Positions 1 through 18,645 of a stretch of 19,941 bases of DNA are shown piece by piece. The stretch is taken from positions 1 to 19,941 of IMG/VR virus record IMGVR_UViG_2534681836_000028; one strand, 5' to 3'. Under the pieces are notes generated by a model. That model did no database searches, was not told the DNA's origin, and worked only from the letters and a program-made list of their open reading frames with translations. The translations under genes and the position numbers were made by a program. The DNA is from a virus. Its lineage: Duplodnaviria > Heunggongvirae > Uroviricota > Caudoviricetes. Position 1 is the stretch's first letter. Each line of letters begins with the position of its first letter.

Positions 1-585
1 ATGAATAAGTTACCGGAAAATTCAGACCAGACGAAAAACGTCAAAAAATCACCATCCATAACCCGCATAGCCACCCGGGGAATTATTAACATTTTTGTTC
101 CTCTGATGGAGACTCGCCTGATAACGAATTCTGTACAGCATATGCTGGAACAACAAAAACGCAGGCTGGACAGATTTCGTCAGGTAAATAATAAAAAGGC
201 GCAACTCCACCTCACGTGGGAAGAAGCTCTGCAGGCCAGCCATATGTCAGTAGACGATCTGGATCGTCGTTTCCGCCGGCGCAGAACAGTATGGCGATTC
301 TGTTGCTGGAGTCTGCTGGCCATCGCTTTGTTTCTCAGTGGTATGCTCTTTGCCGCCTCTTCATTACCTCTTACGACTCTGGTACGCGCCATCAGCACTC
401 TTGTGTTGATACTGTCAGGCGTCGCTCTTTGTGCTTCCAGATCACTGATTGTTACATACCGCCTCTGGCAGTTGCATGAACGAAAAGTCAGCGAACCCGA
501 GCAGGGGACTTTCCGTGATTTTCTGAACGACCGCAATGGCTGGCGCAATGCCACATTAATTGCCGTAACCAGTAAACAATACTGA
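1..585 (+). CDS. TraX-like conjugative-transfer inner-membrane protein (IncI-complex type), 194 aa
   Basis: ATG at nt 1, ORF to 585; basic N-terminus then two hydrophobic helices (WSLLAIALFLSGMLFAASSL, VRAISTLVLILSGVALCA); sits directly upstream of a DotA/TraY-like gene. Assignment rests on remembered IncI gene order traX-traY-excA, not on a search. Confidence 0.35.
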   Translation: MNKLPENSDQTKNVKKSPSITRIATRGIINIFVPLMETRLITNSVQHMLEQQKRRLDRFRQVNNKKAQLHLTWEEALQASHMSVDDLDRRFRRRRTVWRFCCWSLLAIALFLSGMLFAASSLPLTTLVRAISTLVLILSGVALCASRSLIVTYRLWQLHERKVSEPEQGTFRDFLNDRNGWRNATLIAVTSKQY

Positions 586-612
586 TCACGTCCAGATGCC
601 AGTACCACTGGC

Positions 613-2850
613 ATGTCGCCATCCCCCTTAATTAAATCCTGTGTGGCCTTTGCCCATACGCAATTCTATTCCGGAGTTACTGTGAAAATTTTACTTCGCG
701 CACTCTGTGCAGGCCTTGCTATATCCTCACTGCCGGCAATGGCTTCAGTGACCTATCAGGATATTGTGTCTGCCGCAACCAATCCTGACGATCTGTCTCG
801 CCAGGCGCTGGTCACGATATTCGGTGATGTAGTCACCAATCCACTGTCAACCAGCGCCCCCTCTCTGATCGGAAGCATGTTCGGGGCGTTCAACAGTATC
901 ATCGCCGTACTTGCCGTTGTCTGGTTTATGTTCATTGGTATCCGTCATGTTGTGCGTTCGGGGCATCAGGGACAGGTATTCAGCACCGGACGCGATATCG
1001 TCGGCACACTGAGTGTCGTTGCAGGTTTTCTGATGATCGTTCCAACCGGAAATGGCTGGAGTATCGCTCAGCTCATTATGTTATGGGGCGCATCGATAAT
1101 GGGGGTTGGGTCCGCCAATGTGATGGTGCAACTTGCCGCTGATAATATCGCAAATGGTTATTCAATGACTGTACAGCCAGTTCAGGCATCCACACGAACA
1201 GCAGCGCGTGGCATTTTTGAAATGGAACTGTGTAAGTATGCGGTTAACGCAGGACTAAATGATTTTAATCAGACGGCCAAATCCTCGACTTCACTAATGA
1301 CAGAATCAGCTAAAACCGCCAGTGGTAATTACACTGTCACGGTATCCAATGGCAGCGGTATCTGTGGTTCAGCCAGCCTGTCAGTAGAAGGAAACGGAAC
1401 AACAGATCAATCGACGATTGGAAAATTCTTTAATCCCTTCAGTAAAAACGAATACAGCGGTGTTATCTCAGCACAACGTGCAGCCATGGATAATATGATT
1501 AGCGACATGGACAACGCTGCCAGTGAGTTTGTGACAACATTTCTGGAAAAAAGAAATTCTGGCAACGGAACATTGCCGGATATCGAGACACGGATTCAGA
1601 GAGCAGCCGACGAGTATGAACGTGCTGTACAAAAATCGCTACCTATTGATAACGGAGAACAATCCAGGAAAGAAGCTCTCAAGTCTTATCTCACAACCTA
1701 TGGATGGGTGACGCTTGGCGCGTGGTATCAGACCTTTGCCACTGCTAACCAACGTCTGGCAGAGCTGGCAGACCGAGCTCCAGCTGTAACTTCAATGTCA
1801 TCACTTGGGGAAGTTGGCGATACTGATTTATTTAGTGCTGTTATGGGGGCATACAAGACTCAATTGCAGAATTCAACTTATACCCCACCTTTAGGTACTA
1901 TAACTTCAGCAGACGAACAACTACTTTCAAAAACAAGCACGCCACAAGATGCTTTAATCAAGCCCACAGAGAAGTTTGGGCAATGGCTTACGAACAATAT
2001 TGCCACCGAGTGGACTGATTCGGGAACAAGTAGCAATCAAGTTAATCCACTGATAAAAATGAAAAATATTGGTGATAAAACTATGGTCGCTGCAGAGGGT
2101 ATTTGGATTACTTATACATCTGCTAGAGTTATTACTTCAGGAACTGGGAGTTCTATATTTGGTAAATTCATAGATTTGACGACAAGTGCTATTTCAACAC
2201 TAAATGCCTTACTTGAGGCCTTAGCGCCCCCCGTATACTTTCTGTTACTACTGCTGTTTTGTGCAGGATTCTCTTTATCTATTTATTTACCATTTATTCC
2301 GTTTATTTTCTGGATGACTGGGATTGGTAACTGGGTCATTAGTGTATTAATCGGATGTACAGCTGGACCTCTGTGGGGGGCAACTCATCTAGGCACATCA
2401 CAGGAGAGAGGGAGTCGTGCTGCCTACGGTTATATATATTTAATAGACAGCATGATAAGACCACCTATCATGGTTTTCGGATTCTTTTTTGCCTCTGTAG
2501 CCATTATAGCAATAGGTACTATATTAAACTTTTTATTCGGTGCTGCACTGACCAATGTACAAATAAGTTCATTTACAGGTATATTTAGCCTCGCAGGTTT
2601 CTTACTTCTTTATGCTAGAAGTTGCACAACCATTGTAGCCGCAGCATTTGCCTTACAAGCATACCTCCCAGACCATGTAATTAATTTCCTAGGAGGACGT
2701 GATGGTGTAAACACGCTTGGCAATATGGCTGGTTCAATAAAAGAGATTTTTGCTGGCAGCAATAGAAACATAAGACACGCACCTAATATAAGAGAGGAGC
2801 AAATTAAGAGGATGAATAACGACAACAATAAGGATGGAATAAAGGGATAA
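613..2850 (+). CDS. DotA/TraY-like polytopic membrane protein (IncI-type type IV secretion component; exclusion target)
   Basis: ORF 613-2850 (745 aa from ATG). A GTG at 682 preceded by GGAG (673-676, 5-nt spacer) is the more likely start and yields a signal peptide KILLRALCAGLAISSLPAMA. Large soluble N-terminal part, then at least 6 hydrophobic helices in the C-terminal third. Architecture matches DotA/TraY; family assignment is from memory. Confidence 0.5.
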   Translation: MSPSPLIKSCVAFAHTQFYSGVTVKILLRALCAGLAISSLPAMASVTYQDIVSAATNPDDLSRQALVTIFGDVVTNPLSTSAPSLIGSMFGAFNSIIAVLAVVWFMFIGIRHVVRSGHQGQVFSTGRDIVGTLSVVAGFLMIVPTGNGWSIAQLIMLWGASIMGVGSANVMVQLAADNIANGYSMTVQPVQASTRTAARGIFEMELCKYAVNAGLNDFNQTAKSSTSLMTESAKTASGNYTVTVSNGSGICGSASLSVEGNGTTDQSTIGKFFNPFSKNEYSGVISAQRAAMDNMISDMDNAASEFVTTFLEKRNSGNGTLPDIETRIQRAADEYERAVQKSLPIDNGEQSRKEALKSYLTTYGWVTLGAWYQTFATANQRLAELADRAPAVTSMSSLGEVGDTDLFSAVMGAYKTQLQNSTYTPPLGTITSADEQLLSKTSTPQDALIKPTEKFGQWLTNNIATEWTDSGTSSNQVNPLIKMKNIGDKTMVAAEGIWITYTSARVITSGTGSSIFGKFIDLTTSAISTLNALLEALAPPVYFLLLLLFCAGFSLSIYLPFIPFIFWMTGIGNWVISVLIGCTAGPLWGATHLGTSQERGSRAAYGYIYLIDSMIRPPIMVFGFFFASVAIIAIGTILNFLFGAALTNVQISSFTGIFSLAGFLLLYARSCTTIVAAAFALQAYLPDHVINFLGGRDGVNTLGNMAGSIKEIFAGSNRNIRHAPNIREEQIKRMNNDNNKDGIKG

Positions 2851-2925
2851 CAAATTAATATATGACTTGCCATATACACTTGGAGAGATTAAAATATCAA
2901 AAAGTGTTTATGGAGGTCATATATA

Positions 2926-3540
2926 ATGATTGGAGCATATGCAAACCGTGGCGGCACCCATTCTAAAAAAGAAATATGCGTGATCGCATTCGCACTTTTC
3001 TACATTATTTTCGCCGTCCCATTACTAATCATTTGGAATACACCTACCAGTTGGGGACTAGCAGTAATCCCAACTGGATTCCTACTATACTCCGGATATA
3101 AAAAAGGAAGAAAGAAAAGAGCAATCGTAAATAATATCTTAGAACGGATAAAGACTGAATGTCATGATGCATTCGATCCAGACCCATCTTACGAATACAA
3201 ATCAATATCATCATTATATTTCGGAATTGATATCAGAAAAGGTACTGCGTTATATATTCGGCTTTACCCCAATAAAACATTAGATGTCATTGGCATTGAT
3301 ATTGATAATTTTACACGGACAGTAGTAAGAGAAAACTGTATGGAAATACACACAAAGTATGTCAATATGCCAATGTTAGAATTGTCTATTGGTGTTAACT
3401 CTGCTCGTTCTATTGCAAACACATTGCACGCAATGGCAGAAAGAGGATACGATTATTCTGTCGATTTTCCTCGCCTGATTCAGGCAAAACGTAAAGAGTG
3501 GGAGCAGATTGCAGGCATGCCTGTAGCTGAAGTATTTTAA
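2926..3540 (+). CDS. ExcA-like entry-exclusion inner-membrane protein (candidate), 204 aa
   Basis: ATG 2926 with GGAGGT upstream; N-terminal double hydrophobic hairpin (ICVIAFALFYIIFAVPLLIIW / GLAVIPTGFLLYSGY), basic KKGRKKR anchor, soluble C-terminal domain; lies immediately after the traY-like gene as excA does in I-complex plasmids (gene order from memory). Confidence 0.35.
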   Translation: MIGAYANRGGTHSKKEICVIAFALFYIIFAVPLLIIWNTPTSWGLAVIPTGFLLYSGYKKGRKKRAIVNNILERIKTECHDAFDPDPSYEYKSISSLYFGIDIRKGTALYIRLYPNKTLDVIGIDIDNFTRTVVRENCMEIHTKYVNMPMLELSIGVNSARSIANTLHAMAERGYDYSVDFPRLIQAKRKEWEQIAGMPVAEVF

Positions 3541-3560
3541 GATAAGCAGCCTCCATAACT

Positions 3561-3588
3561 GCCGGTTCAGATGAGCCGGCTTTTGTTT
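3561..3588 (+). terminator. Rho-independent terminator after excA-like gene
   Basis: Stem gccggttc / gagccggc with 4-nt loop, followed by ttttgtttg. Confidence 0.4.
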
Positions 3589-3637
3589 GCAACAACACAT
3601 AGCTTATGCCGTATTAAATAACCCCAAGGACCTATTT

Positions 3638-3847
3638 ATGGAAAAAACAAAACAGGAATGGTTATATCAGTTACGTCGCTGTTCCAGCTTAAAGACACTT
3701 GAGAAAATTATTGCTAAAAACCAGGGCACTTTAGCCTCGGATAAAATAGAAGCATTCAACTCTGCAGTTGATCATCACCTTGCGGAACTGACAATGAACA
3801 AATTGTACGACAAAGTACCGGCTTCTGTCTGGAAGCATGTAAAATAA
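3638..3847 (+). CDS. Hha/YmoA-family nucleoid-associated expression modulator, 70 aa
   Basis: ATG 3638 with AAGGA 7 nt upstream; C-terminal AELTMNKLYDKVPASVWKHV closely matches the Hha signature AELTMNKLYDKIPSSVWKF (recalled); LRRCSSLKTLEKII matches Hha LRRCQTIDTLERVI. Confidence 0.8.
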   Translation: MEKTKQEWLYQLRRCSSLKTLEKIIAKNQGTLASDKIEAFNSAVDHHLAELTMNKLYDKVPASVWKHVK

Positions 3848-3857
3848 CGCCAACAAA

Positions 3858-3889
3858 AAGAGCAGGAAATCCCACACCTGCTCTTATTC
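3858..3889 (+). terminator. Rho-independent terminator after hha-like gene
   Basis: 9-bp stem aagagcagg / cctgctctt, 10-nt loop, then T-rich tail. Confidence 0.35.
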
Positions 3890-4055
3890 ATGAATAAATA
3901 TATCCAATATATTTTAATGCGAAGAAATAATCTCCGTAGAAACCCCTATAAGAAAAATATCATATGGGAGAAAATCGCAATTATCACAGCCAGCGCATTC
4001 ATTATTTTCGCTGTGCTCTGGCATTAATTATTTTCAACACAAAAAGGAAAAAACA

Positions 4056-4232
4056 ATGAATCTGGTAGACGCCTTTGTCAAAAAAGTAATATCCGAGCCA
4101 TATGAAGAATATGGAAAATGGTGGATAGATGTTGAATACATTTCATGGGGTGTTCCCGGGAAAACAAGACTGATGTTTGAGTCAAAGGAGCAGGCACTGG
4201 AAGTTAAAGAAGGGTACAAATTTTTAACGTGA
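4056..4232 (+). CDS. Hypothetical small protein, 58 aa (MNLVDAFVKKVISEPYEEYGKWWIDVEYISWGVPGKTRLMFESKEQALEVKEGYKFLT)
   Basis: ATG 4056 with AAAGGAAA SD; below the 60-aa cutoff of the ORF track; ends at TGA 4230-4232 just before a strong hairpin; convergent with the dinQ-like gene. Confidence 0.4.
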   Translation: MNLVDAFVKKVISEPYEEYGKWWIDVEYISWGVPGKTRLMFESKEQALEVKEGYKFLT

Positions 4233-4247
4233 GATCTCTTTTTGTTA

Positions 4248-4277
4248 AAGGGCAGGAAGCGGTAACTCCCTGCCCTT
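4248..4277. terminator. Hairpin between convergent genes (probable bidirectional terminator)
   Basis: 9-bp stem aagggcagg / cctgccctt with 12-nt loop, lying between the stop of the 58-aa ORF (4232) and the stop of the dinQ-like ORF (4297). Confidence 0.4.
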
Positions 4278-4296: not shown

Positions 4297-4392
4297 TCAG
4301 TCGACAAGTTCCCGGATCAGTTCCAGAACAGCAATCAGCGCGTTTGCAACGGCAACTACTGCCCTGAGAACGATGATTAACAGATTAATCAT
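4297..4392 (-). CDS. DinQ-like type I toxin, 31-aa hydrophobic peptide (MINLLIIVLRAVVAVANALIAVLELIRELVD)
   Basis: C-terminal 31 codons of track ORF 4297-4593; ATG at 4392 preceded by GGAGA with 5-nt spacer; single predicted helix; ALIAVLELIRELV resembles DinQ ALIALLELIRFLL (recalled from memory). An alternative ATG four codons upstream (4404) would give MEKRM... Confidence 0.55.
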   Translation of the reverse strand: MINLLIIVLRAVVAVANALIAVLELIRELVD

Positions 4393-4639: not shown

Positions 4640-4738
4640 GTACTATCTACAAGTCAGTTATAGACAGTTCTTTTCCGACCAGAGCCACCCACTCTGTAAC
4701 GGAACAGTAAAAAACCGACCTCACCAGTCGGTTTTTTT
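4640..4738 (+). ncRNA. Putative AgrB-like trans-antisense sRNA for the dinQ-like toxin
   Basis: Perfect -10 TATAAT at 4627-4632; repeat copy 2 inside; rho-independent terminator (stem aaccgac / gtcggtt, T7 run) at 4713-4738. The RNA would be complementary over about 36 nt to the toxin mRNA leader. Ends are inferred, not mapped. Confidence 0.35.
4653..4690. repeat. Direct repeat copy 2 (within the putative antisense sRNA gene)
   Basis: gtcagttatagacagttcttttccgaccagagccaccc; about 188 bp from copy 1, same orientation. Confidence 0.7.
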
Positions 4739-4891
4739 ACATCTGTTGTTTCTCAAAATCCGCCCGACATGCCCGTCACACCGGGGAAACTCATGCTTTG
4801 AATCAGAACCAACCATCTCAACTTTGCCGTCTCCTGAAAAAACTGGCACATTCAGTTCGATAACTACCCATAAATACAGAGAGAAAATCCG

Positions 4892-5214: not shown

Positions 5215-5370
5215 TTAACGTTTAACTTCGTAGGCTAACGTTGCCACAAGCACTGTGTTTCCCTGCTGGAGCCGGAATCCGCAAAGCGAATCCCTCACCA
5301 TCCAGACAAAACACAGAATCGTCACACAGACGACGATTAACATCATTAAAAACGTTCGCTGTGGCATCAT
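5215..5370 (-). CDS. Hok-family type I toxin (hokD/relF position), 51 aa
   Basis: Minus-strand translation MMPQRTFLMMLIVVCVTILCFVWMVRDSLCGFRLQQGNTVLVATLAYEVKR: single TM helix then conserved Cys-containing periplasmic tail typical of Hok; not in ORF track (under 60 aa); lies directly downstream of relE as hokD does in K-12. Confidence 0.7.
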   Translation of the reverse strand: MMPQRTFLMMLIVVCVTILCFVWMVRDSLCGFRLQQGNTVLVATLAYEVKR

Positions 5371-5438
5371 AGCCCCTCCATGTCAACGCAAAGCAGAAGT
5401 GTCACCTTCGGTGCGAAACAGAGATGTCATGCTTTGGT

Positions 5439-5726
5439 TCAGAGAATGCGTTTGACCGCCTCGCTATATACTTCCGAGCGTTCTCTTTTCCCAACAGAAA
5501 TCACGAAAACGACAACTTTCTCGTCTATAACCTGGTATACAAGGCGATAGCCCGAAGACCGGAGCTTAATCTTGTAACAATCAGGCATACCACGGAGCTT
5601 GTTTGCTTCAATCCGGGGTGACTCAAGTACTTCAACCAGCTTCTTTTTCAACTGTTCACGTACCGTCGAGCCCAGCTTTCGCCATTCCTTTAGTGCCCGC
5701 TCGTCAAAATCCAGAAAATACGCCAT
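5439..5726 (-). CDS. relE: RelE mRNA-interferase toxin, 95 aa
   Basis: ORF 5439-5726; RelE/ParE-family sequence; start overlaps relB stop (ATGA at 5726). Confidence 0.9.
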   Translation of the reverse strand: MAYFLDFDERALKEWRKLGSTVREQLKKKLVEVLESPRIEANKLRGMPDCYKIKLRSSGYRLVYQVIDEKVVVFVISVGKRERSEVYSEAVKRIL

Positions 5727-5965
5727 CAGAGTTCATCCAGCGTCACACGTACTGGCTTAGGATTACGAAGCCGTTCTTTCACTATCTCCACAAGTTCAGC
5801 ATCTTCATCACTCAGGAGTGTCTGTTTGAACGGCAAGCGTTCATTGTCAGCGATATACTCGAGCATGAGACGAAGCGCTTCAGAAGGAGTTACACCCATT
5901 TTTTCAAGCGCGGCGTAAGAACGCGCTTTAAGTTCATCGTCAATACGCAGGTTAATGCTACCCAT
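5726..5965 (-). CDS. relB: RelB antitoxin, 79 aa
   Basis: ORF 5726-5965; ribbon-helix-helix N-terminus MGSINLRIDDELK; upstream operator palindrome matches K-12 relO. Confidence 0.9.
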   Translation of the reverse strand: MGSINLRIDDELKARSYAALEKMGVTPSEALRLMLEYIADNERLPFKQTLLSDEDAELVEIVKERLRNPKPVRVTLDEL

Positions 5966-5976
5966 GTCTTACACCT

Positions 5977-6002
5977 CTTGTAATTACAAATGTCATTACA
6001 AG
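5977..6002 (-). promoter_or_regulatory. relO operator / relBE promoter region
   Basis: cttgtaattacaaatgtcattacaag: 12-bp perfect palindrome ttgtaattacaa plus a second attacaag half-site, immediately upstream of relB (minus strand). Confidence 0.6.
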
Positions 6003-6295
6003 TATCGCACTACAACATGCTTAGGGCAAGTCACGAAGGGAGTCAGAAAGTAGTCGTAAGAACGGTGATCACTGTCCGCTTTGTGCCAGGAGCAGCCACT
6101 GCTAAGTCCATCCTGTATTGTGCAGGTCAGCTCGTTTTTAAAGAGTCCGGCCATCATCTTACTGGTACAGACACCATATACTTTGTGACGGTCAGGCTAC
6201 ATATGCACAACTCAACTTATTCATCTATTTTTTGCTTTAGCATGTCAGTGTTGCTTTCTCGTCGGCGGGTGAGCGGTGACCTGACCTGTCGATAA
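5990..6295 (+). CDS. YdfV-like hypothetical protein, 101 aa (doubtful)
   Basis: ORF 5990-6295 divergent from relB; K-12 Qin annotates a ydfV of the same size and position; start overlaps relO and no clear SD is seen, so it may not be expressed. Confidence 0.3.
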   Translation: MSLQVSHYNMLRASHEGSQKVVVRTVITVRFVPGAATAKSILYCAGQLVFKESGHHLTGTDTIYFVTVRLHMHNSTYSSIFCFSMSVLLSRRRVSGDLTCR

Positions 6296-6447
6296 AGGAA
6301 CGTAGCACGTTTTATGCAACACCCGCATGCGGCAGAAAATTATTGCCGAACGTTTACCCCTGTCAACAAGCTTTACTTTCTGAGGCGCGCCAGCCCGCGA
6401 GGAAAACAATCTGAACATCAAACAATTAATGACACAAGAAATACGAT

Positions 6448-6474
6448 TAAAGATTTTTTTGTGCATACCGATAG
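6448..6474 (+). promoter_or_regulatory. Sigma-28 (FliA) class 3 flagellar-type promoter upstream of flxA
   Basis: taaagatt-N11-accgatag versus consensus TAAAGTTT-N11-GCCGATAA, about 24 nt upstream of the flxA ATG. Confidence 0.45.
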
Positions 6475-6497
6475 TGCTTTTTTAAAAGGAGAAATCT

Positions 6498-6830
6498 ATG
6501 TCTGTCACAATTCAGGGAAATACCTCAACCGTTATTTCAAACAACTCCGCCCCGGAAGGAACATCAGAAATAGCCAAAATCACAAGACAAATTCAGGTGC
6601 TGACTGAAAAGCTTGGGAAAATCTCATCGGAAGAGGGGATGACGACACAGCAGAAAAAAGAAATAGCTGCATTGGTACAGAAGCAAATTGAAAGCCTCTG
6701 GGCTCAACTGGAGCAGTTGTTAAGGCAGCAGGCAGAGAAAAAGAATGAAGACGCGACAGTTCAGCCTGATAAAAAAGAAGAGAAAAAAGACGATACAAAT
6801 ACCGCTGGCACCATTGATATTTACGTCTAA
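6498..6830 (+). CDS. flxA: FlxA-like protein (FliA-regulated), 110 aa
   Basis: ORF 6498-6830 with AAAGGAGAAATCT SD; MSVTIQGNTSTVISNN... recognised from memory as FlxA; coiled-coil, Lys/Glu-rich C-terminus. Confidence 0.75.
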   Translation: MSVTIQGNTSTVISNNSAPEGTSEIAKITRQIQVLTEKLGKISSEEGMTTQQKKEIAALVQKQIESLWAQLEQLLRQQAEKKNEDATVQPDKKEEKKDDTNTAGTIDIYV

Positions 6831-6844
6831 GTGACAGCCGTATT

Positions 6845-6867
6845 GTGGCCCTCATCGGGCCACTTTT
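6845..6867 (+). terminator. Rho-independent terminator after flxA
   Basis: Stem gtggccc / gggccac, 5-nt loop, then tttt. Confidence 0.45.
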
Positions 6868-7029
6868 CGCCATCAGCCTTTTCTTTAAAGACATATTATC
6901 TTTGTATCATTTCTGATAGTTAACATTACAAGATATAAGTAATGGACGCACTCCCAATTAGTCTATTTAAATCGCCACGAGTTTAACTGACAACCCATGA
7001 TCAATTATAGAATTGCAACTATTTCTGTA

Positions 7030-8680
7030 GTCACTTTTGTGGGGACAGTCCACAAAACTGCCAACTTCCGCTTCTTGCTCTTAGCGGACATTAGCATAGG
7101 CTATTTGCCATAACGCCTCATTACGCGCACCGCCCAGACTGACTCAGCGCGTTTCTGGCATATCCCCGGTAAAACAAGTAACAAACCACCCGAAAATGAA
7201 CACCAGAAACGCGACTTAAGAATCTACCCTATGAATGGATATGCACTCAACCGAATCGATCTTGGTTTCAATCTTTTTTATCGGGATCAGGCTTCTTTTT
7301 AGGTAACTTCGGGGGCTTAACTTGCTGATGACTTTGCGTTCGGCGCGTAAGCCAGGGATGGTCAGCTTTAGGTTTAACATAGTATTTTGAGCGTAAATCA
7401 ATACGGGCATTATCCACTCGTTCATGGACACTCTTTTCATCATCCAGTGGTATAGGCTCCGGGCCATCAACATACTTTTCCCAGCCCAGCGCTTTCCCGT
7501 CATACAGAACGTTAATTTCACCGTCAAAGTTCTCGCATACAGTAACAACCGAATGCCTAAGTCGATATCCCCGGCCCTCACTGCGTACCTGAAACGCACT
7601 GCTTTTGTACTGGAAAGTGAGATTTTTAGACAGAACGCGCTTCGCCTGTAGGCTGAAGATATAACCCAGTTCCTCTTCAGAATGGTGCACATCAAGATGA
7701 GCATTATCAGTAGTACGAGGCGACGTAGCGAACCGGTTGTTATAGGCTTCAATAAAGGTCGGCAACCATGCATTTGCTGTTTCAATATCACTGATATTCT
7801 GAAGCCGCATTTCTTTGACCAGCCTGTCCTGTAGTGTCTGATTGGCGCGCTCTACCCGCCCTTTTGCCTGCGGGCTGTTGGCATGGATTGGCTCGATGCC
7901 CAGTGTCTTTATCGCACGAGTGAACTGGGTCAGCTCACCTTCCCGCTCTGGGTTATTTACCCTGAATATACTGTGTCTATCAGAGTAGAGAGCGAGCGGT
8001 ACGCCATGATCATTAAGGTAACCCCGGAGGGTTTCCATGTAAGCCCGGGTTGTTTCAGCAGGCACAAAACGCAACGCCATCAACGCACTGGTGGCATCAT
8101 CAATGAAAACGATCAGTGTACATCTGGGGCCTCGATTTTCAAACCAGTCATGAGGTGAGCCATCAATCTGGATCAGTTCACCGTAAGATGGTCGTCGCAT
8201 GCGGCGTTGATATATACGGGCAATTTTACGACGGCGTTCACGCCATACCCCCTCTTCTATCATCCACTTTCTGAGAGTTTCAACGGATAAAGATAAACCG
8301 TGTATCTCACGCAATTTTTCGCACGCAAACGTAGGTCCAAAATCAGCGTAACGGCCTTTGAGGAGTGAAATTACTGTTGCTCTGAATTCAGTAGAAAAGG
8401 AATTATTAGGACGCTTTCCACGTCGGGGGGAAACCAGACCAGAAGGCCCTTCATTTCTATACCGTTGCACCAGACGTTTAACCTGCCGAATAGAAATGCC
8501 AATGCGTGCCGCAGCTTGTTCCTGAGTAATATGTCGATTAATTGACTCCTGAATAATCTGAAGTCGGTGGAGTTCCTTATGACTCATCGTAACAGTCTCT
8601 TTGATCATGAAAAATCCCCCAGAGAATTGTCTGGGGACATTTTAGAATGGTTCAAAGGGGACATTACAGCTTGGTGTTAA
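7030..8680 (-). mobile_element. Insertion sequence, ends not resolved (about 1.6-1.7 kb)
   Basis: Single 446-aa DDE transposase ORF with non-coding flanks; 23-nt hairpin at 7035-7057 and repeated GGGGACA motifs at 7041 and 8633-8665 may mark the termini. Boundaries are approximate. Confidence 0.45.
7268..8608 (-). CDS. DDE transposase (integrase-core/rve type, N-terminal HTH), 446 aa; ISNCY(IS1202-group)- or IS481-like
   Basis: ORF 7268-8608; HTH AARIGISIRQVKRLV; catalytic-core motifs QIDGSPHDW, FIDDATS, AKGRVERANQTL; no IstB-like partner, so IS21 is unlikely; basic Lys/Pro-rich C-terminal tail. Confidence 0.85.
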   Translation of the reverse strand: MIKETVTMSHKELHRLQIIQESINRHITQEQAAARIGISIRQVKRLVQRYRNEGPSGLVSPRRGKRPNNSFSTEFRATVISLLKGRYADFGPTFACEKLREIHGLSLSVETLRKWMIEEGVWRERRRKIARIYQRRMRRPSYGELIQIDGSPHDWFENRGPRCTLIVFIDDATSALMALRFVPAETTRAYMETLRGYLNDHGVPLALYSDRHSIFRVNNPEREGELTQFTRAIKTLGIEPIHANSPQAKGRVERANQTLQDRLVKEMRLQNISDIETANAWLPTFIEAYNNRFATSPRTTDNAHLDVHHSEEELGYIFSLQAKRVLSKNLTFQYKSSAFQVRSEGRGYRLRHSVVTVCENFDGEINVLYDGKALGWEKYVDGPEPIPLDDEKSVHERVDNARIDLRSKYYVKPKADHPWLTRRTQSHQQVKPPKLPKKKPDPDKKD

Positions 8681-9358
8681 CAATAGCCTGCTTCTCCTTG
8701 CCTTTCGGCACGTAAGAGGCTAACCTACATATGTCTAGCATGAAATTGGCCTCAGATTAATGTTAAGCGTCTTGCAGGACGCGTAATGTTAACTGGGGCT
8801 TTTCTCTATCTGCCGTTGGTGTTCATGCCCGAGGCAGATAGCCTCAAGCACCCGCAGCCATTCTACTTAACTACCGTTACCTCGCCAATGTGAAATCAGT
8901 CAGAAAGGCGATCCATAAGAACAATAGCAAGACAATAAATCGCCATTACAGCCGTAATAGCCAGCGCACATTTGAGAACCAGCACCACAACCTCCTGTAT
9001 TGGACGTAGACCAGTCCTGATGAATATGAGGCTGTCTCGTCAGTGATTCAATACAACTATTGGGTATAGTTTCTCTGATTTTTTCTGTGGAAATGGGGCA
9101 CAACCACTAGTCACCACCAGCACTTCTTTTAATACGCAAAGTCCGACACAAGCTAACCTTCTAGTCCGCTTTGAGCGAAAAACAGCCATAATTTAGTGCC
9201 ACGTATATAATGATAGAGCTATTCAAGCTAGCAATTCACATGTAAAAATTCAGAGGGTAGAAGCACATAGTTATAAATGTTGGCTCCATCGACAAATTGC
9301 GGTCTCAAGTACATTTATTAATGTTGCCCCCGCATTAACAAATCATCAAGGTGACGAC

Positions 9359-11146
9359 ATGGACGATATTAATATCAGCCTCGACGAACTTAACACTATT
9401 GATTTATCCCCCTTAATCCAGAGTAAGCTGCCAGTTACCTGCTTTGATATCACAAAGTATCTTTCTAGCCTAGGTGATGGAAGAGCGGAGATAAGACTGC
9501 TAACCCATATTTGCGGTTTTCACTTTCGTCCCGAAAATCCACAGGTACCATTTGGTCCGTGCTTTCAAAGCAGCCAAGGTAGATCTGCAATTCCGGATGA
9601 CATTAACGGGTTGTCGCTGGAGGTACTTTCTCAATTTTGCCCGACGATAGAGCTACCCGAACTTCAAGCTCGTATTGCTGATACACTTTGGGTTCGTAAA
9701 ATTGGTGGAATCCGTTTTCCTTTGCTGGCAGTCCGTGCTTATTATGCGTCCAGTATAGCTATTATGACATCGCAAGGGACGTGGGTTAGTGCTTTAGAAC
9801 GCCTAGAGCGTGCGCTTAGGCTGTGTTGTTTTTTTCGAAAGCATACTGATTTCAGGGATGAATTTGATCAGCTTTCGGCACATCTACTAGCAGAGTATGA
9901 ACGTACCAGAGAACAAGGCGATTCACCTTATCCGCTGCGACTCCTGCAACTCGATATCGACTGTAAAGTGAGTGAGCCATCTTTTATTGCCCAGGAACTC
10001 CTGTTTCTGACAAAAAACTATCTGGCTCAAAAATTATTTTCATTTGCCGTCGATGCCTGTAAAACCGCAATCCCGATTGCGAATAGGTGCTGTGACAGAG
10101 ATACACAGTTTGAATTCTGGCGGCTTCTTGCCGATACACATCTGGAAGAGTCAAAATTCCAAGATGGCGGTATGATTTCGGCAGCCTGCATGCAGAATGC
10201 TATTGAAGCACTGGCTAATATTCCAGGAACCCGAATAGAACGTCTTGCGCTGTATGAAGAAATGCGTGATTACCAAATCGAATCCCGTCACCAGATGTCT
10301 ATCCTTCAGTCTCCCCCTCAAGATATTAGTGAGATTGTCCATCAAGCCAAGAGTCGGGTAGTCGGAAGAGATTTGTTTGATATGGTTTTCAGACTTGCGA
10401 TGCTGGTCTGTCGGCCAACCAGCATTGAGAGACTTAAGGCTCAAGCAATAGAACAAAAGGCCAACAGCATAGCTTGGATGTTTGGATCAACACATATTGA
10501 TCATGAGGGAATGACACTTGCTCGCATACCCGCAGGATTGGGGATTGATGATGCAAATGGGGCAGTTATTTGGCCCATAATGATGACGAGAATGCGTATC
10601 GACCATGAGTTGGCAGTAGCTGGGCAAATTATTCCTGCTACAGATGAGATCACAATGAAATATCCAATCTCGGAGGCGTTTTTTCGCGATATGTTCATCA
10701 ATCATCCCTTCATCCCGTTTGGGCATGAAGAGTTTTTCATCAAGGGTATGGTTTGCGGTTTCAATGGAGATTTTATGACGGCATGCCACGTGTTGATTCC
10801 CCAGATCGAAAATAGTCTGAGATATGTGGCTAAAATTAAAGGTGAGGAACCATCGCAGCTTCACGGGGACGGTTCGCAAGAGCGAAATGGACTCAAGGGA
10901 TTACTAGATAATCCACTGATTATTGAAGCTTTCGGCGTAGACATAATTGGCAATCTTCAGGCCTTACTGGTAGATAAAATCTATGGTGATTTACGAAATC
11001 AACTAGCTCACGGATATGTGCCTGCCGGTTACTACAATCAACCTCCCTGCATTTTTGCATGGTGGCTTGTATTGCACATTCTAATGAACCCTACGGCGAG
11101 ATACTGGCAAGCCACTTATGGCCAAGAGAGTGAGGCTCAGACTTAA
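9359..11146 (+). CDS. Solitary 595-aa cytoplasmic protein with C-terminal HEPN-like Rx4HG motif; candidate abortive-infection/defence effector (possibly DUF4209-like)
   Basis: ATG 9359 with AAGGTGA SD; long uninterrupted ORF; motif DLRNQLAHG (nt about 10994-11014) fits the HEPN R-x4-6-H signature; no TM segment, no Walker motif; flanked by an IS and about 750 bp of non-coding DNA; convergent with phage replication genes. Confidence 0.8.
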   Translation: MDDINISLDELNTIDLSPLIQSKLPVTCFDITKYLSSLGDGRAEIRLLTHICGFHFRPENPQVPFGPCFQSSQGRSAIPDDINGLSLEVLSQFCPTIELPELQARIADTLWVRKIGGIRFPLLAVRAYYASSIAIMTSQGTWVSALERLERALRLCCFFRKHTDFRDEFDQLSAHLLAEYERTREQGDSPYPLRLLQLDIDCKVSEPSFIAQELLFLTKNYLAQKLFSFAVDACKTAIPIANRCCDRDTQFEFWRLLADTHLEESKFQDGGMISAACMQNAIEALANIPGTRIERLALYEEMRDYQIESRHQMSILQSPPQDISEIVHQAKSRVVGRDLFDMVFRLAMLVCRPTSIERLKAQAIEQKANSIAWMFGSTHIDHEGMTLARIPAGLGIDDANGAVIWPIMMTRMRIDHELAVAGQIIPATDEITMKYPISEAFFRDMFINHPFIPFGHEEFFIKGMVCGFNGDFMTACHVLIPQIENSLRYVAKIKGEEPSQLHGDGSQERNGLKGLLDNPLIIEAFGVDIIGNLQALLVDKIYGDLRNQLAHGYVPAGYYNQPPCIFAWWLVLHILMNPTARYWQATYGQESEAQT

Positions 11147-11243
11147 AGTGAATAAGTTTACGAAGTTGGCACTTCCGGATGCATGTCCATATGAGTTGAG
11201 GCGATTTGGTTAATAAGGTTGAGTGCTGCTGAAATTATTCGAT

Positions 11244-11267
11244 GTCCGCTTTTGGCACAAAGCGGAC
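11244..11267. terminator. Hairpin in the convergent intergenic region (possible terminator)
   Basis: Perfect 9-bp stem gtccgcttt / aaagcggac with 6-nt loop; weak U-tract, so terminator function is uncertain. Confidence 0.3.
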
Positions 11268-11364
11268 AACCACGCCAGATCTACCCTGTGCCATGAAAAA
11301 TGAGAATGTCAATTCACTCCTGAACTAATGCTTTTTAATCTAGTAACGTCTAAAATACCTAACA

Positions 11365-11766
11365 TTATCCCTGATAAAATGCCAGTATGCGCTGCATAAC
11401 TTCACTCATCCGGCACTCGCGACAGATTATGTTTAGGCGACTGTCGTAGCGACGTATTTCTCCATCAGGTAACGACCAGATAAGGTCCGGATCAACCACA
11501 GCTGTTTTCTTCACCTTTGCCCTCGAGAGTTTTTTGCGGGCGTTTTGCCAGTCCTTACGCGCCTGTTCAGACGGGAATAACCCGTAGCCGGAGTTGTATA
11601 CATCGCCACTGGCAACCAGCTCTCTGGCAAGAACGCTCATCAGATATCTAGTCGCACCTGTTTTAGCTTCCAGTTGCCGTAACGTCTCACGACCGCTCTG
11701 GCGCACGAGTTCCACCACCTGCCCTTTAATTTTTTCCCGCTCTTCTTGTGTAAAAACTTTTGCCAC
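11365..11766 (-). CDS. Phage hypothetical protein, 133 aa (downstream of replication initiator)
   Basis: ORF 11365-11766 with GTG start preceded by AAGGGGGA; basic, no ATPase motifs (not a DnaC/P-like helicase loader). Confidence 0.55.
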   Translation of the reverse strand: MAKVFTQEEREKIKGQVVELVRQSGRETLRQLEAKTGATRYLMSVLARELVASGDVYNSGYGLFPSEQARKDWQNARKKLSRAKVKKTAVVDPDLIWSLPDGEIRRYDSRLNIICRECRMSEVMQRILAFYQG

Positions 11767-11806
11767 AAGTCCCCCTTAAAATTACCTCATGACCTGAAAT
11801 CAAAAC

Positions 11807-12772
11807 TTATCCTCTGAAACCAGGCGGAATTTCTGTATTCGGTTCAGAAATATGATTAACACAACGCTGTACAGGTGAACGCCCCAGGCGGATGACCAGT
11901 TCGTCCCATTTTTCGCGGAGCTTTGACGGGCTCATGATGTTTTTTACCCAGAATGGATCCCGCTGTACCCGACCAAACATTTCACAAATTTGTCTGTGGC
12001 TTCTGCCATCCAGCATCCGCATTGTGCGCACATCATTGGCCCAGACAGTCCAGTTAGGCTCTTTTGGTCGCATGATCTCGCCATCATCACTGGCGGCCTG
12101 TTCGTAGAGACCCACGATCCGCCCCCATATCCACTGCGCACACGCCAGATCCTCCTGGCTACCCCACTGGCGTTTTTTCGCACTAAACACAACTGCGCCA
12201 GGGTGCCGGATTAAAAAATCCTGTTCAGCCGTCTGCGGGTCCGGTTGCGAAGCTTCCGGACGAAAAGTGTTTTTATTCTCTGTAGTAATCTCTGTTGTAT
12301 TCTCTGTAGGATCATCGGGCCATTTTGACCCGATGACATTGGGTCGTTTTGAACCAATGGAGCGTTTCATTTTGACCTCTTCCATCGTGTCATTTTGACC
12401 TGATGGAGCGGCGCATTTTGAACCGATGGATTCGCTCAATTTGCCATCATCTAAAAGCTCGCTCCCATAGTTAATCGTGTAGAAATTGGTCATATCGCGC
12501 TTTGATTTATTGAGCTTTTCACAACGCAAAAGCCCCAGCGTTTTCAGACTTGCAAACGCGCGCTTTAACGTTGACTCTGACCAGAATGGGAACTGTTCCA
12601 GCCATTGTTCCGTTGTGTTGTAAATCCAGCGAACACCATCACATTCCATGCCGGAATTGGTATCTCTCAACCAGTAATGCAACTGCTGCAACACAATGGC
12701 TTCATTTAAGCCAATCTTCATCGCAAGCTGTGTGTTTATAACCAGTGGGCGTTCAGCAAAAAGAAGGCTCAT
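11807..12772 (-). CDS. Lambdoid replication initiator (O-like / YdaU-like replisome organiser) containing the iteron origin
   Basis: Track ORF 11807-12826 begins at a TTG; the ATG at 12772 (MSLLFAERPLVINTQLAMKIGLNEAIVLQQLHYWL, winged-helix N-domain) is the more likely start; internal repeats SIGSK x3 are encoded by DNA iterons; overlaps the upstream ydaT-like gene. Confidence 0.8.
   Translation of the reverse strand: MSLLFAERPLVINTQLAMKIGLNEAIVLQQLHYWLRDTNSGMECDGVRWIYNTTEQWLEQFPFWSESTLKRAFASLKTLGLLRCEKLNKSKRDMTNFYTINYGSELLDDGKLSESIGSKCAAPSGQNDTMEEVKMKRSIGSKRPNVIGSKWPDDPTENTTEITTENKNTFRPEASQPDPQTAEQDFLIRHPGAVVFSAKKRQWGSQEDLACAQWIWGRIVGLYEQAASDDGEIMRPKEPNWTVWANDVRTMRMLDGRSHRQICEMFGRVQRDPFWVKNIMSPSKLREKWDELVIRLGRSPVQRCVNHISEPNTEIPPGFRG
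12270..12455. repeat. Phage origin of replication: five to six 23-24-bp-spaced iterons plus adjacent 12-bp repeats
   Basis: Iterons cattttga(c/a)c-N-gatgg starting at about 12321, 12345, 12368, 12391, 12414 (degenerate sixth at 12437); three attctctgtag-type repeats at about 12275-12309; all inside the O-like gene, as in lambda ori. Confidence 0.65.
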
Positions 12773-13274
12773 AATTCCATCCAGCTTTTTGTTGGTATTG
12801 CTGTCGATACGCAAGTTTGAAAGCAATTGCTTTTTCTATAAGTTCGTCAGTTTCACGATCCACTACGGCAGGATCAGCAAAAAGCAGTCCGGACTCCACC
12901 ACATCGCCATATTCTTTGTTTAACCCGGCGATCATGTACGTGATGCTTTTTCCGTCACTAATTTCACGATACAACCTGAAATCATTAATCCGGATAGCCT
13001 CCATAATTGCAGGCACTAGCGCCGTGAACTTTTCACGCTTATCCCTGGTGTCGATAGCCTTCCAGCGTTCGAATATCTTCACTCGATTAACGCCAAGCGC
13101 TCGCTGATCAACCGCGCCACCTTCATCTGTGACACGCTGAACATCGATGTTCGGGCGCTCTTTCAAAGCCCAGAATGCTTCAGTGATTAATATCGTCGCC
13201 TGCTCCTGTGTCATTCCTGGTCGACATATCCAGGCATCCAGAGCCTCACGAGCCTGTTCAGGAGTGATTTTCAT
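12753..13274 (-). CDS. YdaT-like protein (cII-position regulator/toxin-family), 173 aa
   Basis: ORF 12753-13274; start overlaps stop of the cro-like gene; motifs FERWK and ALVPAIMEAI parallel Rac YdaT (recalled). Confidence 0.6.
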   Translation of the reverse strand: MKITPEQAREALDAWICRPGMTQEQATILITEAFWALKERPNIDVQRVTDEGGAVDQRALGVNRVKIFERWKAIDTRDKREKFTALVPAIMEAIRINDFRLYREISDGKSITYMIAGLNKEYGDVVESGLLFADPAVVDRETDELIEKAIAFKLAYRQQYQQKAGWNYEPSFC

Positions 13275-13485
13275 TGTTCAACCGCCCCGCCCGCTTCGTC
13301 TTACGATATTCGTCATAAACCTTGGGATCATACAGAAGCTCCCCGCCAGATGCCTCCTGTAGACGCATCGCGCGACCTTCAGGAACCAGTATCCCCCAAG
13401 CAGCAACACTTGCCAGTCTCACTCCTGCGGCATTGGCAAGCTTTGTTTTGCTGCCAAAAAAAGTAATTGCGTCAACTTTAAGCAT
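13258..13485 (-). CDS. dicC: Cro-like regulator (DicC / YdaS family), about 75 aa
   Basis: Track ORF 13258-13488 starts at TTG; ATG at 13485 gives MLKVDAITFFGSKTKLANAAGVRLASV...; HTH; divergent from the dicA-like repressor. Confidence 0.75.
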   Translation of the reverse strand: MLKVDAITFFGSKTKLANAAGVRLASVAAWGILVPEGRAMRLQEASGGELLYDPKVYDEYRKTKRAGRLNNENHS

Positions 13486-13498
13486 CAAAGCCCCCTCT

Positions 13499-13516
13499 TG
13501 TTAGACTTTTCTAACA
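13499..13516. promoter_or_regulatory. Operator palindrome O1 in the dicC-dicA divergent intergenic region
   Basis: tgttaga-cttt-tctaaca (7-bp arms, 4-bp spacer). Confidence 0.5.
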
Positions 13517-13565
13517 TTATTGTGCGCGGGATATCTAAGTCAAGAAAAATTAGAATTACCTAACT

Positions 13566-13973
13566 ATGGATACAAGAACCCTAGGCCAGCGAGTTCTGGC
13601 GCGACGAAAAGAATTACGCTTAACACAACGAGAAGCTGCGCGCCTCGCTGGAGTTGCTCACGTCACAATTTCACAATGGGAAAGAGACGAAACCCAGCCA
13701 GTCGGAAAACGATTGTTTGCTTTAGCGGATGCTCTGAAGTGCTCACCTACATGGCTAATGTTTGGTGACGAAGACAAGGCACCAGTGCCTGCACAAGAAC
13801 TTCATGTGGAAACAGAGCTAACTCCCAACCACAAAGAATTGATCGAATTATTCGATGCTCTTCCATCTTCCGAGCAGGAAGCCTTGCTGTCTGAAATGCG
13901 CGCAAGAGTAGAAAACTTCAACAAACTCTTCGAAGAAATGCTTAAAGCGCGTAAAAATAAATCAATAAAATAA
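13566..13973 (+). CDS. dicA: DicA-like XRE-family HTH repressor (CI analogue without peptidase domain), 135 aa
   Basis: ORF 13566-13973; HTH LTQREAARLAGVAHVTISQWERDETQP; same length as K-12 DicA and closely similar to it (recalled). Confidence 0.85.
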   Translation: MDTRTLGQRVLARRKELRLTQREAARLAGVAHVTISQWERDETQPVGKRLFALADALKCSPTWLMFGDEDKAPVPAQELHVETELTPNHKELIELFDALPSSEQEALLSEMRARVENFNKLFEEMLKARKNKSIK

Positions 13974-14005
13974 CATTCTTTTCAAGTGATTAGTTGCGCC
14001 CACTC

Positions 14006-14031
14006 TTTTTGTTAGACCAATCTAACAAAAA
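14006..14031. promoter_or_regulatory. Operator palindrome O2 upstream of the ydfA-dicF-dicB operon promoter
   Basis: tttttgttaga-ccaa-tctaacaaaaa (11-bp arms); immediately followed by candidate -35 TTGCCT, 17 bp, -10 TAAATT. Confidence 0.5.
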
Positions 14032-14141
14032 ACACTTGCCTATCATGTTAGGTTATTCTAAATTACTTTCCATCAAGACACCGCACGGTGTTCTCAGCAA
14101 ACAGTTCCGCTACCCCGGCGTTAAGGGGAAATGAGGTCAGC

Positions 14142-14297
14142 ATGGATACTATCGATCTTGGCAACAGCGAATCTCTGGTATGTGGCGTGTTCCCCAACCA
14201 GGACGGCACGTTCACCGCGATGACGTATACCAAAAGCAAAACGTTTAAAACCGAAAATGGTGCCCGTCGCTGGCTGGAAAGAAACTCAGGTGAGTGA
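14142..14297 (+). CDS. ydfA: YdfA-like small protein, 51 aa
   Basis: ATG 14142 with GAGGT SD (track ORF 14088-14297 starts earlier, in frame); MDTIDLGNSESLVCGVFPNQDGTFTAMTYTKSKTFKTENGARRWLERNSGE. Confidence 0.7.
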   Translation: MDTIDLGNSESLVCGVFPNQDGTFTAMTYTKSKTFKTENGARRWLERNSGE

Positions 14298-14298
14298 T

Positions 14299-14874
14299 AT
14301 GGATTTCGACACAATCATGGAAAAGGCTTACGAAGAATACTTCGAAGGCCTTGCCGAAGGCGAAGAAGCTCTCAGCTTCAGTGAGTTTAAACAGGCACTC
14401 AGAATAAGAATGTGCTCTCACAATGACGCGGAGCACAAATATGAGAAGCAAAATCAGACCGCAGAAAATTTTGTTCTGGAACCCGGAGAAACGCTTTTCA
14501 AAATTCCCGTTACGTGCCCCATTTGCGGTTTTACATCAGAAGAACTTGACGACTCCTGTAACAATCAGGAAACAACCAAGTATGTCGAAGATGATACCGA
14601 GTGCGCACGAAGAACGATTATATCCACGAGTCCAAACTCCAGGGCCAATAAATCTCACTTTGAGAGGGTGATTAATCCACTCCCCCAAACCAATAAAAAA
14701 GATGCCGGAGGACAAAAAACCCAATGGAACAACGGGATATCTGTCAAAAAAAGACGTTCCATTAAAGACAAACAACGCAGCGCCAACAACTGTAAGCGCT
14801 TTATACCAGTAATCAATTTTCATGTTCTTAAGCGGATTTATTGGTGGTTGCGACATTGCTTAATGAATCCTTAA
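14299..14874 (+). CDS. YdfB/YdfC-like protein, 191 aa, with putative Cys-cluster (CPICGF ... DDSC ... TEC)
   Basis: ATG 14299 with AGGTGAG SD, one nt after the ydfA stop; single long ORF where K-12 Qin has two short genes (from memory). Confidence 0.5.
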   Translation: MDFDTIMEKAYEEYFEGLAEGEEALSFSEFKQALRIRMCSHNDAEHKYEKQNQTAENFVLEPGETLFKIPVTCPICGFTSEELDDSCNNQETTKYVEDDTECARRTIISTSPNSRANKSHFERVINPLPQTNKKDAGGQKTQWNNGISVKKRRSIKDKQRSANNCKRFIPVINFHVLKRIYWWLRHCLMNP

Positions 14875-15133
14875 AACTGTGGTGATTTTAAGGATACCAC
14901 CTCGCCTGACGTGGTTAAAAGCAGGCACACAACACGAAAGCGCACGGCGAAGTTCGTCTCACTGTACGGTGTCGTTAAATTTAATTCGACCGTGCGCTTC
15001 CGGTTGTGGCAACCCGCAAAATGGCGCGGCGGTAAGTATGGCGGGGTTATTCCTTCCCCGTTGAGGACACCGGGTTGTCAGGTTGACCATACGCTTAAGT
15101 GACAACCCCGCTGCAACGCCCTCTGTTATCAAT

Positions 15134-15186
15134 TTTCTGGTGACGTTTGGCGGTATCAGTTTTACTCCGTGACTGCTCTGCCGCCG
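15134..15186 (+). ncRNA. dicF: DicF sRNA (antisense inhibitor of ftsZ translation)
   Basis: tttctggtgacgtttggcggtatcagttttactccgtgactgctctgccgccg matches the remembered 53-nt K-12 DicF nearly exactly; followed by a T-run; position between ydfB/C and dicB as in Qin. Confidence 0.75.
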
Positions 15187-15360
15187 TTTTTAAAGTGAAT
15201 TTTGTTATGCGGTGAATGCGGCTAAGCGCACGCGGAACAGTTAAAACCAAAAACAGTGTTATGGGTGGATTCTCTGTATCCGACGTTAATTGTTAACTGG
15301 TTAACGTCACCTGGAGGCACCAGGCACTGCATCACAAAATTTATTGTTGAGGACGCGATA

Positions 15361-15737: not shown

Positions 15738-15830
15738 AACAGTTCCGTAATAAATATCCGGTTTCATTCTTATATGCCAGCAATGGCAGGGATTTGTTCA
15801 TCCTTAAATCTGTCATGAGGTTAAAACAAA

Positions 15831-18302: not shown

Positions 18303-18374
18303 TGTTCAACTGTCGCCGGTTGTGACTGGTATTCTGCAACCGGCGCTCGTCTGATGTAAGAGATAAAGAAATCG

Positions 18375-18626: not shown

Positions 18627-18645
18627 CTAAAAGCCACACTAACTA

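Follow-up and report, generated by a model that had tools for sequence, protein, structure and literature searches.

In IncI-type entry exclusion, a recipient that already carries the plasmid makes ExcA, which keeps out DNA from donors with a matching variable segment in TraY, the target of ExcA on the donor side. Therefore, the specificity sits in a linked pair, formed by the TraY variable segments and ExcA. Here, we analyzed a stretch of 19,941 nucleotides (nt) from a Caudoviricetes record (IMGVR_UViG_2534681836_000028; hereafter, the window), which opens with the genes traX, traY, and excA, continues through a 3302-bp insertion sequence (IS) of the IS1202 family, and ends in a Qin-like lambdoid prophage arm.

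At the literature level, TraY is given as the target of IncI ExcA in PMC11493245, with reference to Sakuma et al. 2013. The traY-excA entry-exclusion pair of plasmid R621a was described by Takahashi 2011 and Sakuma 2013, as reported in PMC8004404 and PMC11493245. PMC11493245 also describes a shared logic in TraS/TraG of F-like plasmids and Eex/TraG of SXT/R391: the genes are adjacent, and an exclusion protein of the recipient recognizes a variable segment of the donor's neighboring inner-membrane mating-channel protein. The proteins themselves are considered unrelated to those of IncI plasmids, whose TraY is a member of the DotA family found in type IVB systems.

The exclusion pair is known to vary among I-complex plasmids. 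PMC8004404 catalogued six ExcA and nine TraY variants, described IncI1 plasmids of a 'Cluster A' in which excA/traY of the R621a type accompany tra genes like those of R64/ColIb, and found the R621a-type excA/traY together with the R64 inc sequence. Moreover, PMC7066084 used traY-excA to separate I1 from I-gamma and found intermediates.

The window is 100% identical to contig AIGM01000028.1 (237 kb; GCA_000249935.2; Escherichia coli DEC9C, O26:H11, ST29) from base 74 of that contig. We read nt 1-5380 as coming from a conjugative plasmid of the IncI1 type (I-complex, MPF_I), namely as the usual distal part of its transfer region, carrying an R621a-type exclusion allele, not orphaned, and bridged by the IS element to the prophage. 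We give this reading a probability of about 0.8.

At the gene level, nt 1-5380 contain traX, traY, and excA in this order, followed by a maintenance strip of hha, dqlB-agrB, and pndA. TraX, TraY, ExcA, and Hha each scored above the curated NCBIfam cut-off, and a Kyte-Doolittle scan located hydrophobic segments in TraX, TraY, and ExcA. The Pfam scan gave no significant family for TraX, TraY, or ExcA, and their identities were settled by NCBIfam. The initial annotation, made from the letters alone, had described three same-strand membrane-protein genes, the middle one DotA/TraY-like, followed by an Hha-family gene; the NCBIfam and Pfam results confirmed this layout. The names that it gave to the three genes –traX, traY, and excA– were also correct when the proteins were compared with those of R64 and R621a.

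At the plasmid level, nt 1-4300 matched 1448 PLSDB plasmids by megablast, nearly all typed as conjugative and with IncI replicons, and 239 of these matches covered at least 80% of the segment. The best match, pUA1136, was 99.2% identical over 4.3 kb and is annotated with traX, traY, excA, and hha. The window as a whole was not covered to 80% or more by any PLSDB plasmid or closed E. coli genome.

TraX (1..585, plus strand; 194 amino acids, aa) is an IncI1-type conjugal transfer protein that matched the equivalog model NF033887 (conj_TraX) with 172 bits against a cut-off of 100, and it was 99.5% identical to R64 TraX and 95.4% to R621a TraX. TraY (682..2850, plus strand) is a DotA/TraY inner-membrane protein of 722 aa with a GTG start (TIGR04346, 557 bits against 100). 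The traY start is ambiguous: the longest open reading frame (ORF) runs from an in-frame ATG at nt 613 and encodes 745 aa; all RefSeq annotations use the GTG at nt 682.

TraY was colinear and full-length compared with both prototypes, with 86.2% identity to R64 TraY and 99.3% to R621a TraY. The divergence from R64 was concentrated in aa 401-520 and aa 681-720, and the C-terminal membrane domain was 85-93% conserved. In 40-aa bins, the internal variable segment (aa 401-520; 1882..2241, plus strand) was 45-70% identical to R64 and 100% to R621a. The C-terminal variable segment (aa 681-722; 2722..2847, plus strand) was 47% identical to R64 and 100% to R621a.

The excA gene (2926..3540, plus strand) starts after a 75-nt gap downstream of traY on the same strand, in the order also seen in R64, R621a, and an IncB/O plasmid. 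It encodes an IncI-type entry/surface exclusion protein of 204 aa, an R621a-type allele with an N-terminal hydrophobic segment (NF033891, surf_exc_IncI1, 232 bits against 100). The protein has the same length as R621a ExcA and was 94% identical to it, with 12 of the 204 residues differing, mostly C-terminal; against R64 ExcA (220 aa), identity was 52% over 165 aa. The codons of the C-terminal end (3439-3540) differ from those of R621a. All the ORFs of the segment are intact.

To map the mosaic, we aligned the segment to the prototypes R64 and R621a and used the counts of single-nucleotide polymorphisms (SNPs) per segment and a 100-nt identity profile. At nt 1-1600, there were 8 differences to R64 and 29 to R621a, whereas at nt 1601-3400 there were 629 and 23, respectively. 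The next stretch, nt 3401-3950, differed from both (201 and 183), and nt 3951-4400 differed from R64 at a single position and from R621a at 30. The R64-divergent block thus spans 1573..3950, of which 1601-3400 is R621a-type, and 3401-3950 matches neither reference and contains the hha module. The switch away from R64 starts at about nt 1573-1601, with differences at first mainly at every third base, and becomes heavy from about nt 1850.

R64-like flanks around an R621a-like core are the signature of a recombinational replacement. Judged from its sequence, the window copy is an R621a (IncI-gamma) specificity allele in an otherwise R64-like backbone, which is a documented recombinational mosaic, and its exclusion specificity is expected to differ from that of R64. 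The replicon of the plasmid lies outside the window. The exchange of the traY 3' half and excA as one unit, suggested before any comparison was made, is supported by the segment differences (629 vs. 23) and had already been published. Traded traY/excA cassettes are established knowledge, and published work already relies on them for subtyping IncI1 and I-gamma plasmids.

Compared with R621a, the window shares the two TraY variable segments, the length of ExcA, and the order traX-traY-excA, but its traX and first 900 nt are closer to R64, its ExcA differs in the C-terminal part, and it has hha downstream where R621a has a 'HEAT repeat' ORF. Compared with R64 and ColIb-P9, the IncI1 prototypes, gene order and function are the same and the flanks (nt 1-1600 and 3951-4400) are 99.5-100% identical. 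The differences from R64 lie in the TraY variable segments, in ExcA, and in hha, which R64 lacks.

At the junction with the prophage, we found an IS1202-family (ISEsa1-like) transporter IS of 3302 bp (5381..8682, minus strand), recognized by its terminal inverted repeats, by the hidden Markov model (HMM) of its transposase, and by filled and empty sites. The transposase (7268..8608, minus strand; 446 aa) matched NF033594 ISNCY with 463 bits against 250, and its PGAP name is IS1202-like ISEsa1 family. The cargo consists of relE (5439..5726, minus strand), relB, ydfV (5990..6295, plus strand), and flxA (6498..6830, plus strand).

The element ends in imperfect terminal inverted repeats (19 of 26 positions) with TGT...ACA termini, and it also has a subterminal repeat. 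This is in line with the IS1202 family as described in PMC10132070, in which the terminal inverted repeats are imperfect and about 24-26 bp long, the ends read TGT...ACA, and a subterminal repeat is present. With the groups of that family (ISAjo2/ISAba32, ISTde1, IS1202, and ISEsa1), the element shares the transposase HMM, the inverted repeats of about 26 bp, the TGT...ACA ends, and long target-site duplications (TSDs), and some members of the family carry passenger genes. In contrast, its target is the start of hok-family genes and not dif/pdif sites, and as cargo it has ydfV and flxA in addition to the toxin-antitoxin pair relBE.

The two flanks of the element are of different origin. On the left lies a plasmid-type TSD copy, CATCATAGCCCCTCCA (5365..5380), which covers the start codon and Shine-Dalgarno sequence of pndA. 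On the right lies a chromosome-type copy from the hokD locus, ATAGCCTGCTTCTCC (8683..8697), which has no match to the left-hand one. In pDEC9B-1 (NZ_CP074761), the closed plasmid of the sibling strain DEC9B, CATCATAGCCCCTCCA flanks the element on both sides as a 16-bp TSD at pndA; in two other loci (L002 and L009), ATAGCCTGCTTCTCC does so as a 15-bp TSD at hokD.

The corresponding empty sites were also found. Plasmids without the element read GGCATCATAGCCCCTCCATTGCC, and the duplicated sequence occurs once in pUA1136; the empty chromosomal site, with hokD adjoining a gene for a 595-aa protein (such as in L011), reads TTCATAGCCTGCTTCTCCTTGCC. At pndA and at hokD, the element occupies homologous positions, in each case immediately before the Shine-Dalgarno sequence and start codon of a hok-family gene. 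We also considered the pndA/hokD junction as a product of homeologous recombination between hok paralogues; the inverted repeats, the 15-16 bp duplications, and the empty sites ruled it out.

With plasmid duplication on the left and chromosomal duplication on the right, the window flanks are hybrid and therefore do not record a primary insertion: the window joins a plasmid and a chromosomal copy of the element. In this lineage, the element sits at pndA on the plasmid as well as at hokD in the chromosomal Qin-like prophage, and the contig would bridge the two copies. The sibling DEC9B carries it on both plasmid and chromosome, each time at the start of a hok gene, and over 3.3 kb its two copies are 100% identical, so that a short-read assembler could easily go astray there. 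From these sequences, the junction in the window is probably an assembly misjoin across the repeat, which we favor over a cointegrate.

Five SNPs of the window's element (5553, 6040, 6099, 6467, and 6665) and one indel (7009) are private to it: they are absent from both DEC9B copies, from the plasmid-sized contig L003, and from strain ARS-C101, and the adjoining 5.4 kb of plasmid DNA have no SNP. Therefore, the element copy is probably chromosomal, with the switch located in the initial 177 bp of the repeat; this fits an assembler taking the wrong branch at a repeat boundary. Assigning the copy by SNPs alone failed, as the DEC9B copies are identical and the five SNPs of the window are private.

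The junction between pndA and relE was present in four closed E. coli genomes and was plasmid-borne in all four. It was found on the chromosome in none of 5426 closed E. coli genomes, and an exact 39-mer across it was absent from the GTDB species representatives.

The strongest competitor of a misjoin is a real, Hfr-like cointegrate, in which the whole IncI1 plasmid would be integrated in the Qin-like prophage of DEC9C, and the window would be its right-hand junction. It could form by homologous recombination between element copies or by unresolved replicative transposition into the hokD site, and a plasmid TSD on the left with a chromosomal TSD on the right is exactly what either route predicts. 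The contig also reads through the 3.3 kb repeat instead of breaking, and where a chromosome carries this 595-aa gene, its hokD site is usually empty. According to PMC10132070, TnsB of Tn7 serves as the model for the transposases of the IS1202 family, and the family encodes none of the additional proteins on which targeted Tn7 transposition depends. By analogy, this type of transposase would favor copy-in transposition.

However, the plasmid copies lack the five element SNPs, and the 5.4 kb of plasmid DNA next to the element have none; the element is therefore no fresh copy of the plasmid's own, and any crossover would have to fall in the first 177 of 3302 bp. Besides, the plasmid is kept separate in the closed sibling DEC9B, the pndA/relE junction is chromosomal in none of the 5426 closed genomes, and the source is a short-read draft from 2012. 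On balance, we regard integration of the plasmid as doubtful and a misjoin as the better explanation. A genuine cointegrate would put the ExcA/TraY exclusion module in the chromosome.

The initial annotation had proposed an orphan remnant, possibly kept as a barrier to incoming plasmids. In that case, only the exclusion end (a truncated traW and traX-traY-excA) would survive in the chromosome by the prophage, and chromosomal ExcA would bar IncI plasmids. The start of the contig in traW, where there is no obvious repeat, could be the edge of an IS-mediated deletion, and the ORFs of the segment are all intact. However, the window opens at traX because the contig, from a 2012 short-read draft, begins there: only 73 bp precede the window, and they are plain traW 3' end with no IS end. 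Looking upstream of nt 1 for the rest of a tra region thus gave 73 bp of traW and then the contig end, which is no evidence of absence; in relatives, the full tra region follows upstream.

The relatives show what usually surrounds this DNA. The exact TraY protein occurred in 371 index blocks of the assembly collection, and in only one of them was the contig longer than 200 kb (AIGM01000028.1 itself). Among 25 contigs examined with this TraY, 24 were plasmid-sized with the whole tra region upstream (L003, for example). The closed plasmid pDEC9B-1 reads traN...traW-traX-traY-excA-hha-dqlB-pndA-relE-relB-ydfV-flxA-transposase-trbABC-nikBA, and nt 1-5375 of the window differ from it by one single-base indel and no SNP. 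A complete MPF_I transfer region is thus present around identical DNA in both pDEC9B-1 and L003.

The window shares with pDEC9B-1 and related IncI1 plasmids the same element, the same site (pndA), and the same left flank. Beyond the right end of the element they part: in pDEC9B-1, the pnd leader, trbABC, and nikBA follow, and in the window, a sokD leader and the prophage. One indel apart from a functional-looking complete sibling plasmid, the segment shows no decay and so no evidence of long residence as a remnant. Nothing points to a decayed or isolated exclusion module; the barrier proposal is not supported, and we consider it very improbable. The proposed location next to a prophage stood in part: the prophage is real in the window but starts at nt 8683 and not directly after hha. 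As a caution, DNA that starts at the end of a draft contig can mimic an orphan remnant next to a prophage when the contig also runs over a repeat common to plasmid and chromosome.

At the compositional level, the shift in guanine-cytosine content (GC) noticed by eye at about nt 1800 inside the traY-like gene, with a low block up to nt 4250, held up under quantitative analysis. A two-change-point likelihood fit over nt 1-5375 placed breaks at nt 1820 and 4250, with GC going from 0.487 to 0.381 and back to 0.487; the low-GC block (1820..4250) rests on this fit, a codon shuffle, and a sliding window. Within traY alone, the best break was at nt 1818 (0.488 vs. 0.393), and none of 300 codon shuffles reached the observed log-likelihood ratio. 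Per gene, GC was 0.487 in the traY 5' part, 0.396 in the traY 3' part, 0.377 in excA, and 0.386 in hha. The drop was greatest at third codon positions (0.456, 0.311, and 0.312 for traY 5', traY 3', and excA). The remaining tra region of a close relative has a GC of 0.519.

The low GC is not peculiar to the window copy, because a falling gradient across traY 5', traY 3', and excA is also seen in R64 (0.49, 0.443, and 0.389) and in the IncB/O plasmid (0.567, 0.481, and 0.426), next to 0.487, 0.396, and 0.377 in the window and R621a type. The AT-rich composition is a property of the hypervariable traY 3'/excA module across the I-complex, sharpest in the R621a-type allele. The GC break sits about 220-250 nt inside the allelic block, and at its other end the low-GC block closes with 300 nt (3951-4250) that do not differ from R64; the lone R64 difference in 3951-4400 is at nt 4290.

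A recent insertion into traY of foreign DNA from outside the I-complex, peculiar to this sequence, might account for the fall of third-position GC from 0.456 to 0.311 and for the sharp block boundaries in the likelihood fit, but is hardly credible, with the 722-aa TraY colinear and full-length against R64 and R621a, its C-terminal membrane domain conserved, the same gradient in R64 and IncB/O plasmids, an allele common to hundreds of plasmids, and R64 sequence in the right-hand 300 nt of the block.

Several points weigh against the reading that we prefer. The choice between misjoin and cointegrate is made by inference from the sequence of one draft contig. The arrangement of element, sokD leader, and 595-aa gene occurs in no closed genome of the collections, and the chromosomes with that 595-aa gene mostly have an empty hokD site, as said above. 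The contig breaks in unique sequence 73 bp before traX without an obvious cause, so that traW may be interrupted there by an IS or partly deleted. For the allele, 6% of the ExcA residues, most of them toward the C-terminus, are not those of R621a, and the specificity of the protein is a predicted one.

Beyond the window, related elements also abut hok/sok loci. The last 22 nt of the right inverted repeat were found in 16 Enterobacteriaceae species representatives of GTDB (L020-L035), many on plasmid contigs. The adjoining DNA was a hok start plus leader in 12 of the 15 readable cases, with at least 7 different sequences or hok loci, and one related element lay in the opposite orientation, against the hok ORF. 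In six related loci, a full-length Rfam sok match ended exactly at the terminal base of the element. Hosts of the hok-abutting ends included Klebsiella, Enterobacter, Kluyvera, Citrobacter, Pantoea, Shigella, and others. The related elements measured 2575, 3302, 4487, and 6093 bp; with lengths that differ so much (2.6-6.1 kb), the cargo varies.

The comparison suggests that the relB-relE-hokD arrangement of Qin arose by insertion of the element into a hok/sok locus. Taken together, we tentatively propose –as a possibility and not as our expectation– an undescribed site-specific IS1202 subgroup that carries cargo such as relBE and enters hok-family genes at one point, with the sok/mok leader on one side and the Shine-Dalgarno sequence/start codon on the other. 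Such a subgroup would have created the relBEF of Qin and the 3.3-kb homology between IncI1 plasmids and the chromosome, and the DEC9C contig may record a real cointegrate. If this is true, it would explain relBE upstream of hokD, give a target to IS1202 subgroups, and offer a route for recombination between IncI1 plasmids and the chromosome.

The IS1202-family literature that we searched, including PMC10132070, reported no target for the long-TSD and ISEsa1 groups and did not mention hok. Within a coverage that was incomplete, we found no literature linking hokD, relBEF, ydfV, or flxA to a transposon, which is weak evidence of novelty. The hok-targeting element may be the only new item in this window, and as such it may be worth more than the traY/excA module.

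On the prophage side, the plasmid homology stops at nt 5380, and homology to Qin-like prophages runs from there to the integrase next to rspB. The prophage arm proper (8683..19941), assigned by chromosomal matches next to rspB, contains the 595-aa candidate defense gene PDC-S39, DUF977, YdaT, cro/cI, DicF, dicB, an exonuclease, xis, and int.

A sokD-type hok/sok leader (8682..8853, minus strand) was matched at full length by Rfam RF01794 with 106.9 bits and ends at the last base of the element. It belongs to the chromosomal hokD and not to pndA. The element parts this leader from its own hok ORF, and the nearest hok ORF in the window is pndA, 3.3 kb away. By analogy with the relBEF operon, expression of pndA or hokD may depend on read-through from relBE.

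The 595-aa protein (9359..11146, plus strand) combines DUF4209 / DUF7380 and EMARD_N and matched the PADLOC candidate defense family PDC-S39 (E=2e-102). Its gene lies at a site of the Qin-like prophage whose content varies: a KwaB-like gene or a 1210-aa protein takes its place in other strains. Further along, the small RNA DicF (15135..15186, plus strand; Rfam RF00039, 72.5 bits) marks the immunity/dicB region, as in K-12 Qin.

Finally, on the plasmid side, hha (3638..3847, plus strand) encodes a 69-aa modulator of the Hha/YmoA family (PF05321 HHA, E=1e-25; NF008191, 103 bits against 90). It stands where R64 and R621a have an opposite-strand 'HEAT repeat' ORF, and in the 100-nt identity profile, nt 3600-3900 had no homology to R64 or R621a. 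The hha module (3401-3950) adds a third piece to the mosaic and is not tied to the traY/excA allele.

The rest of the maintenance strip carries two toxin loci. The plasmid Hok/Gef-family toxin ORF pndA (5215..5367, minus strand) was identified by Hok family HMM matches and by the Hok/Gef annotation in relatives, and the element, inserted immediately upstream of it, stands between this ORF and its own leader. The DinQ-like type I toxin gene dqlB (4297..4392, minus strand) matched NF041473 with 63 bits, and its AgrB-type antisense RNA (4654..4740, plus strand) matched Rfam RF02891 with 58.5 bits. Between dqlB and the AgrB-type RNA, nt 4401-4700 form a short mosaic patch with 110 differences to R64 and 3 to R621a.

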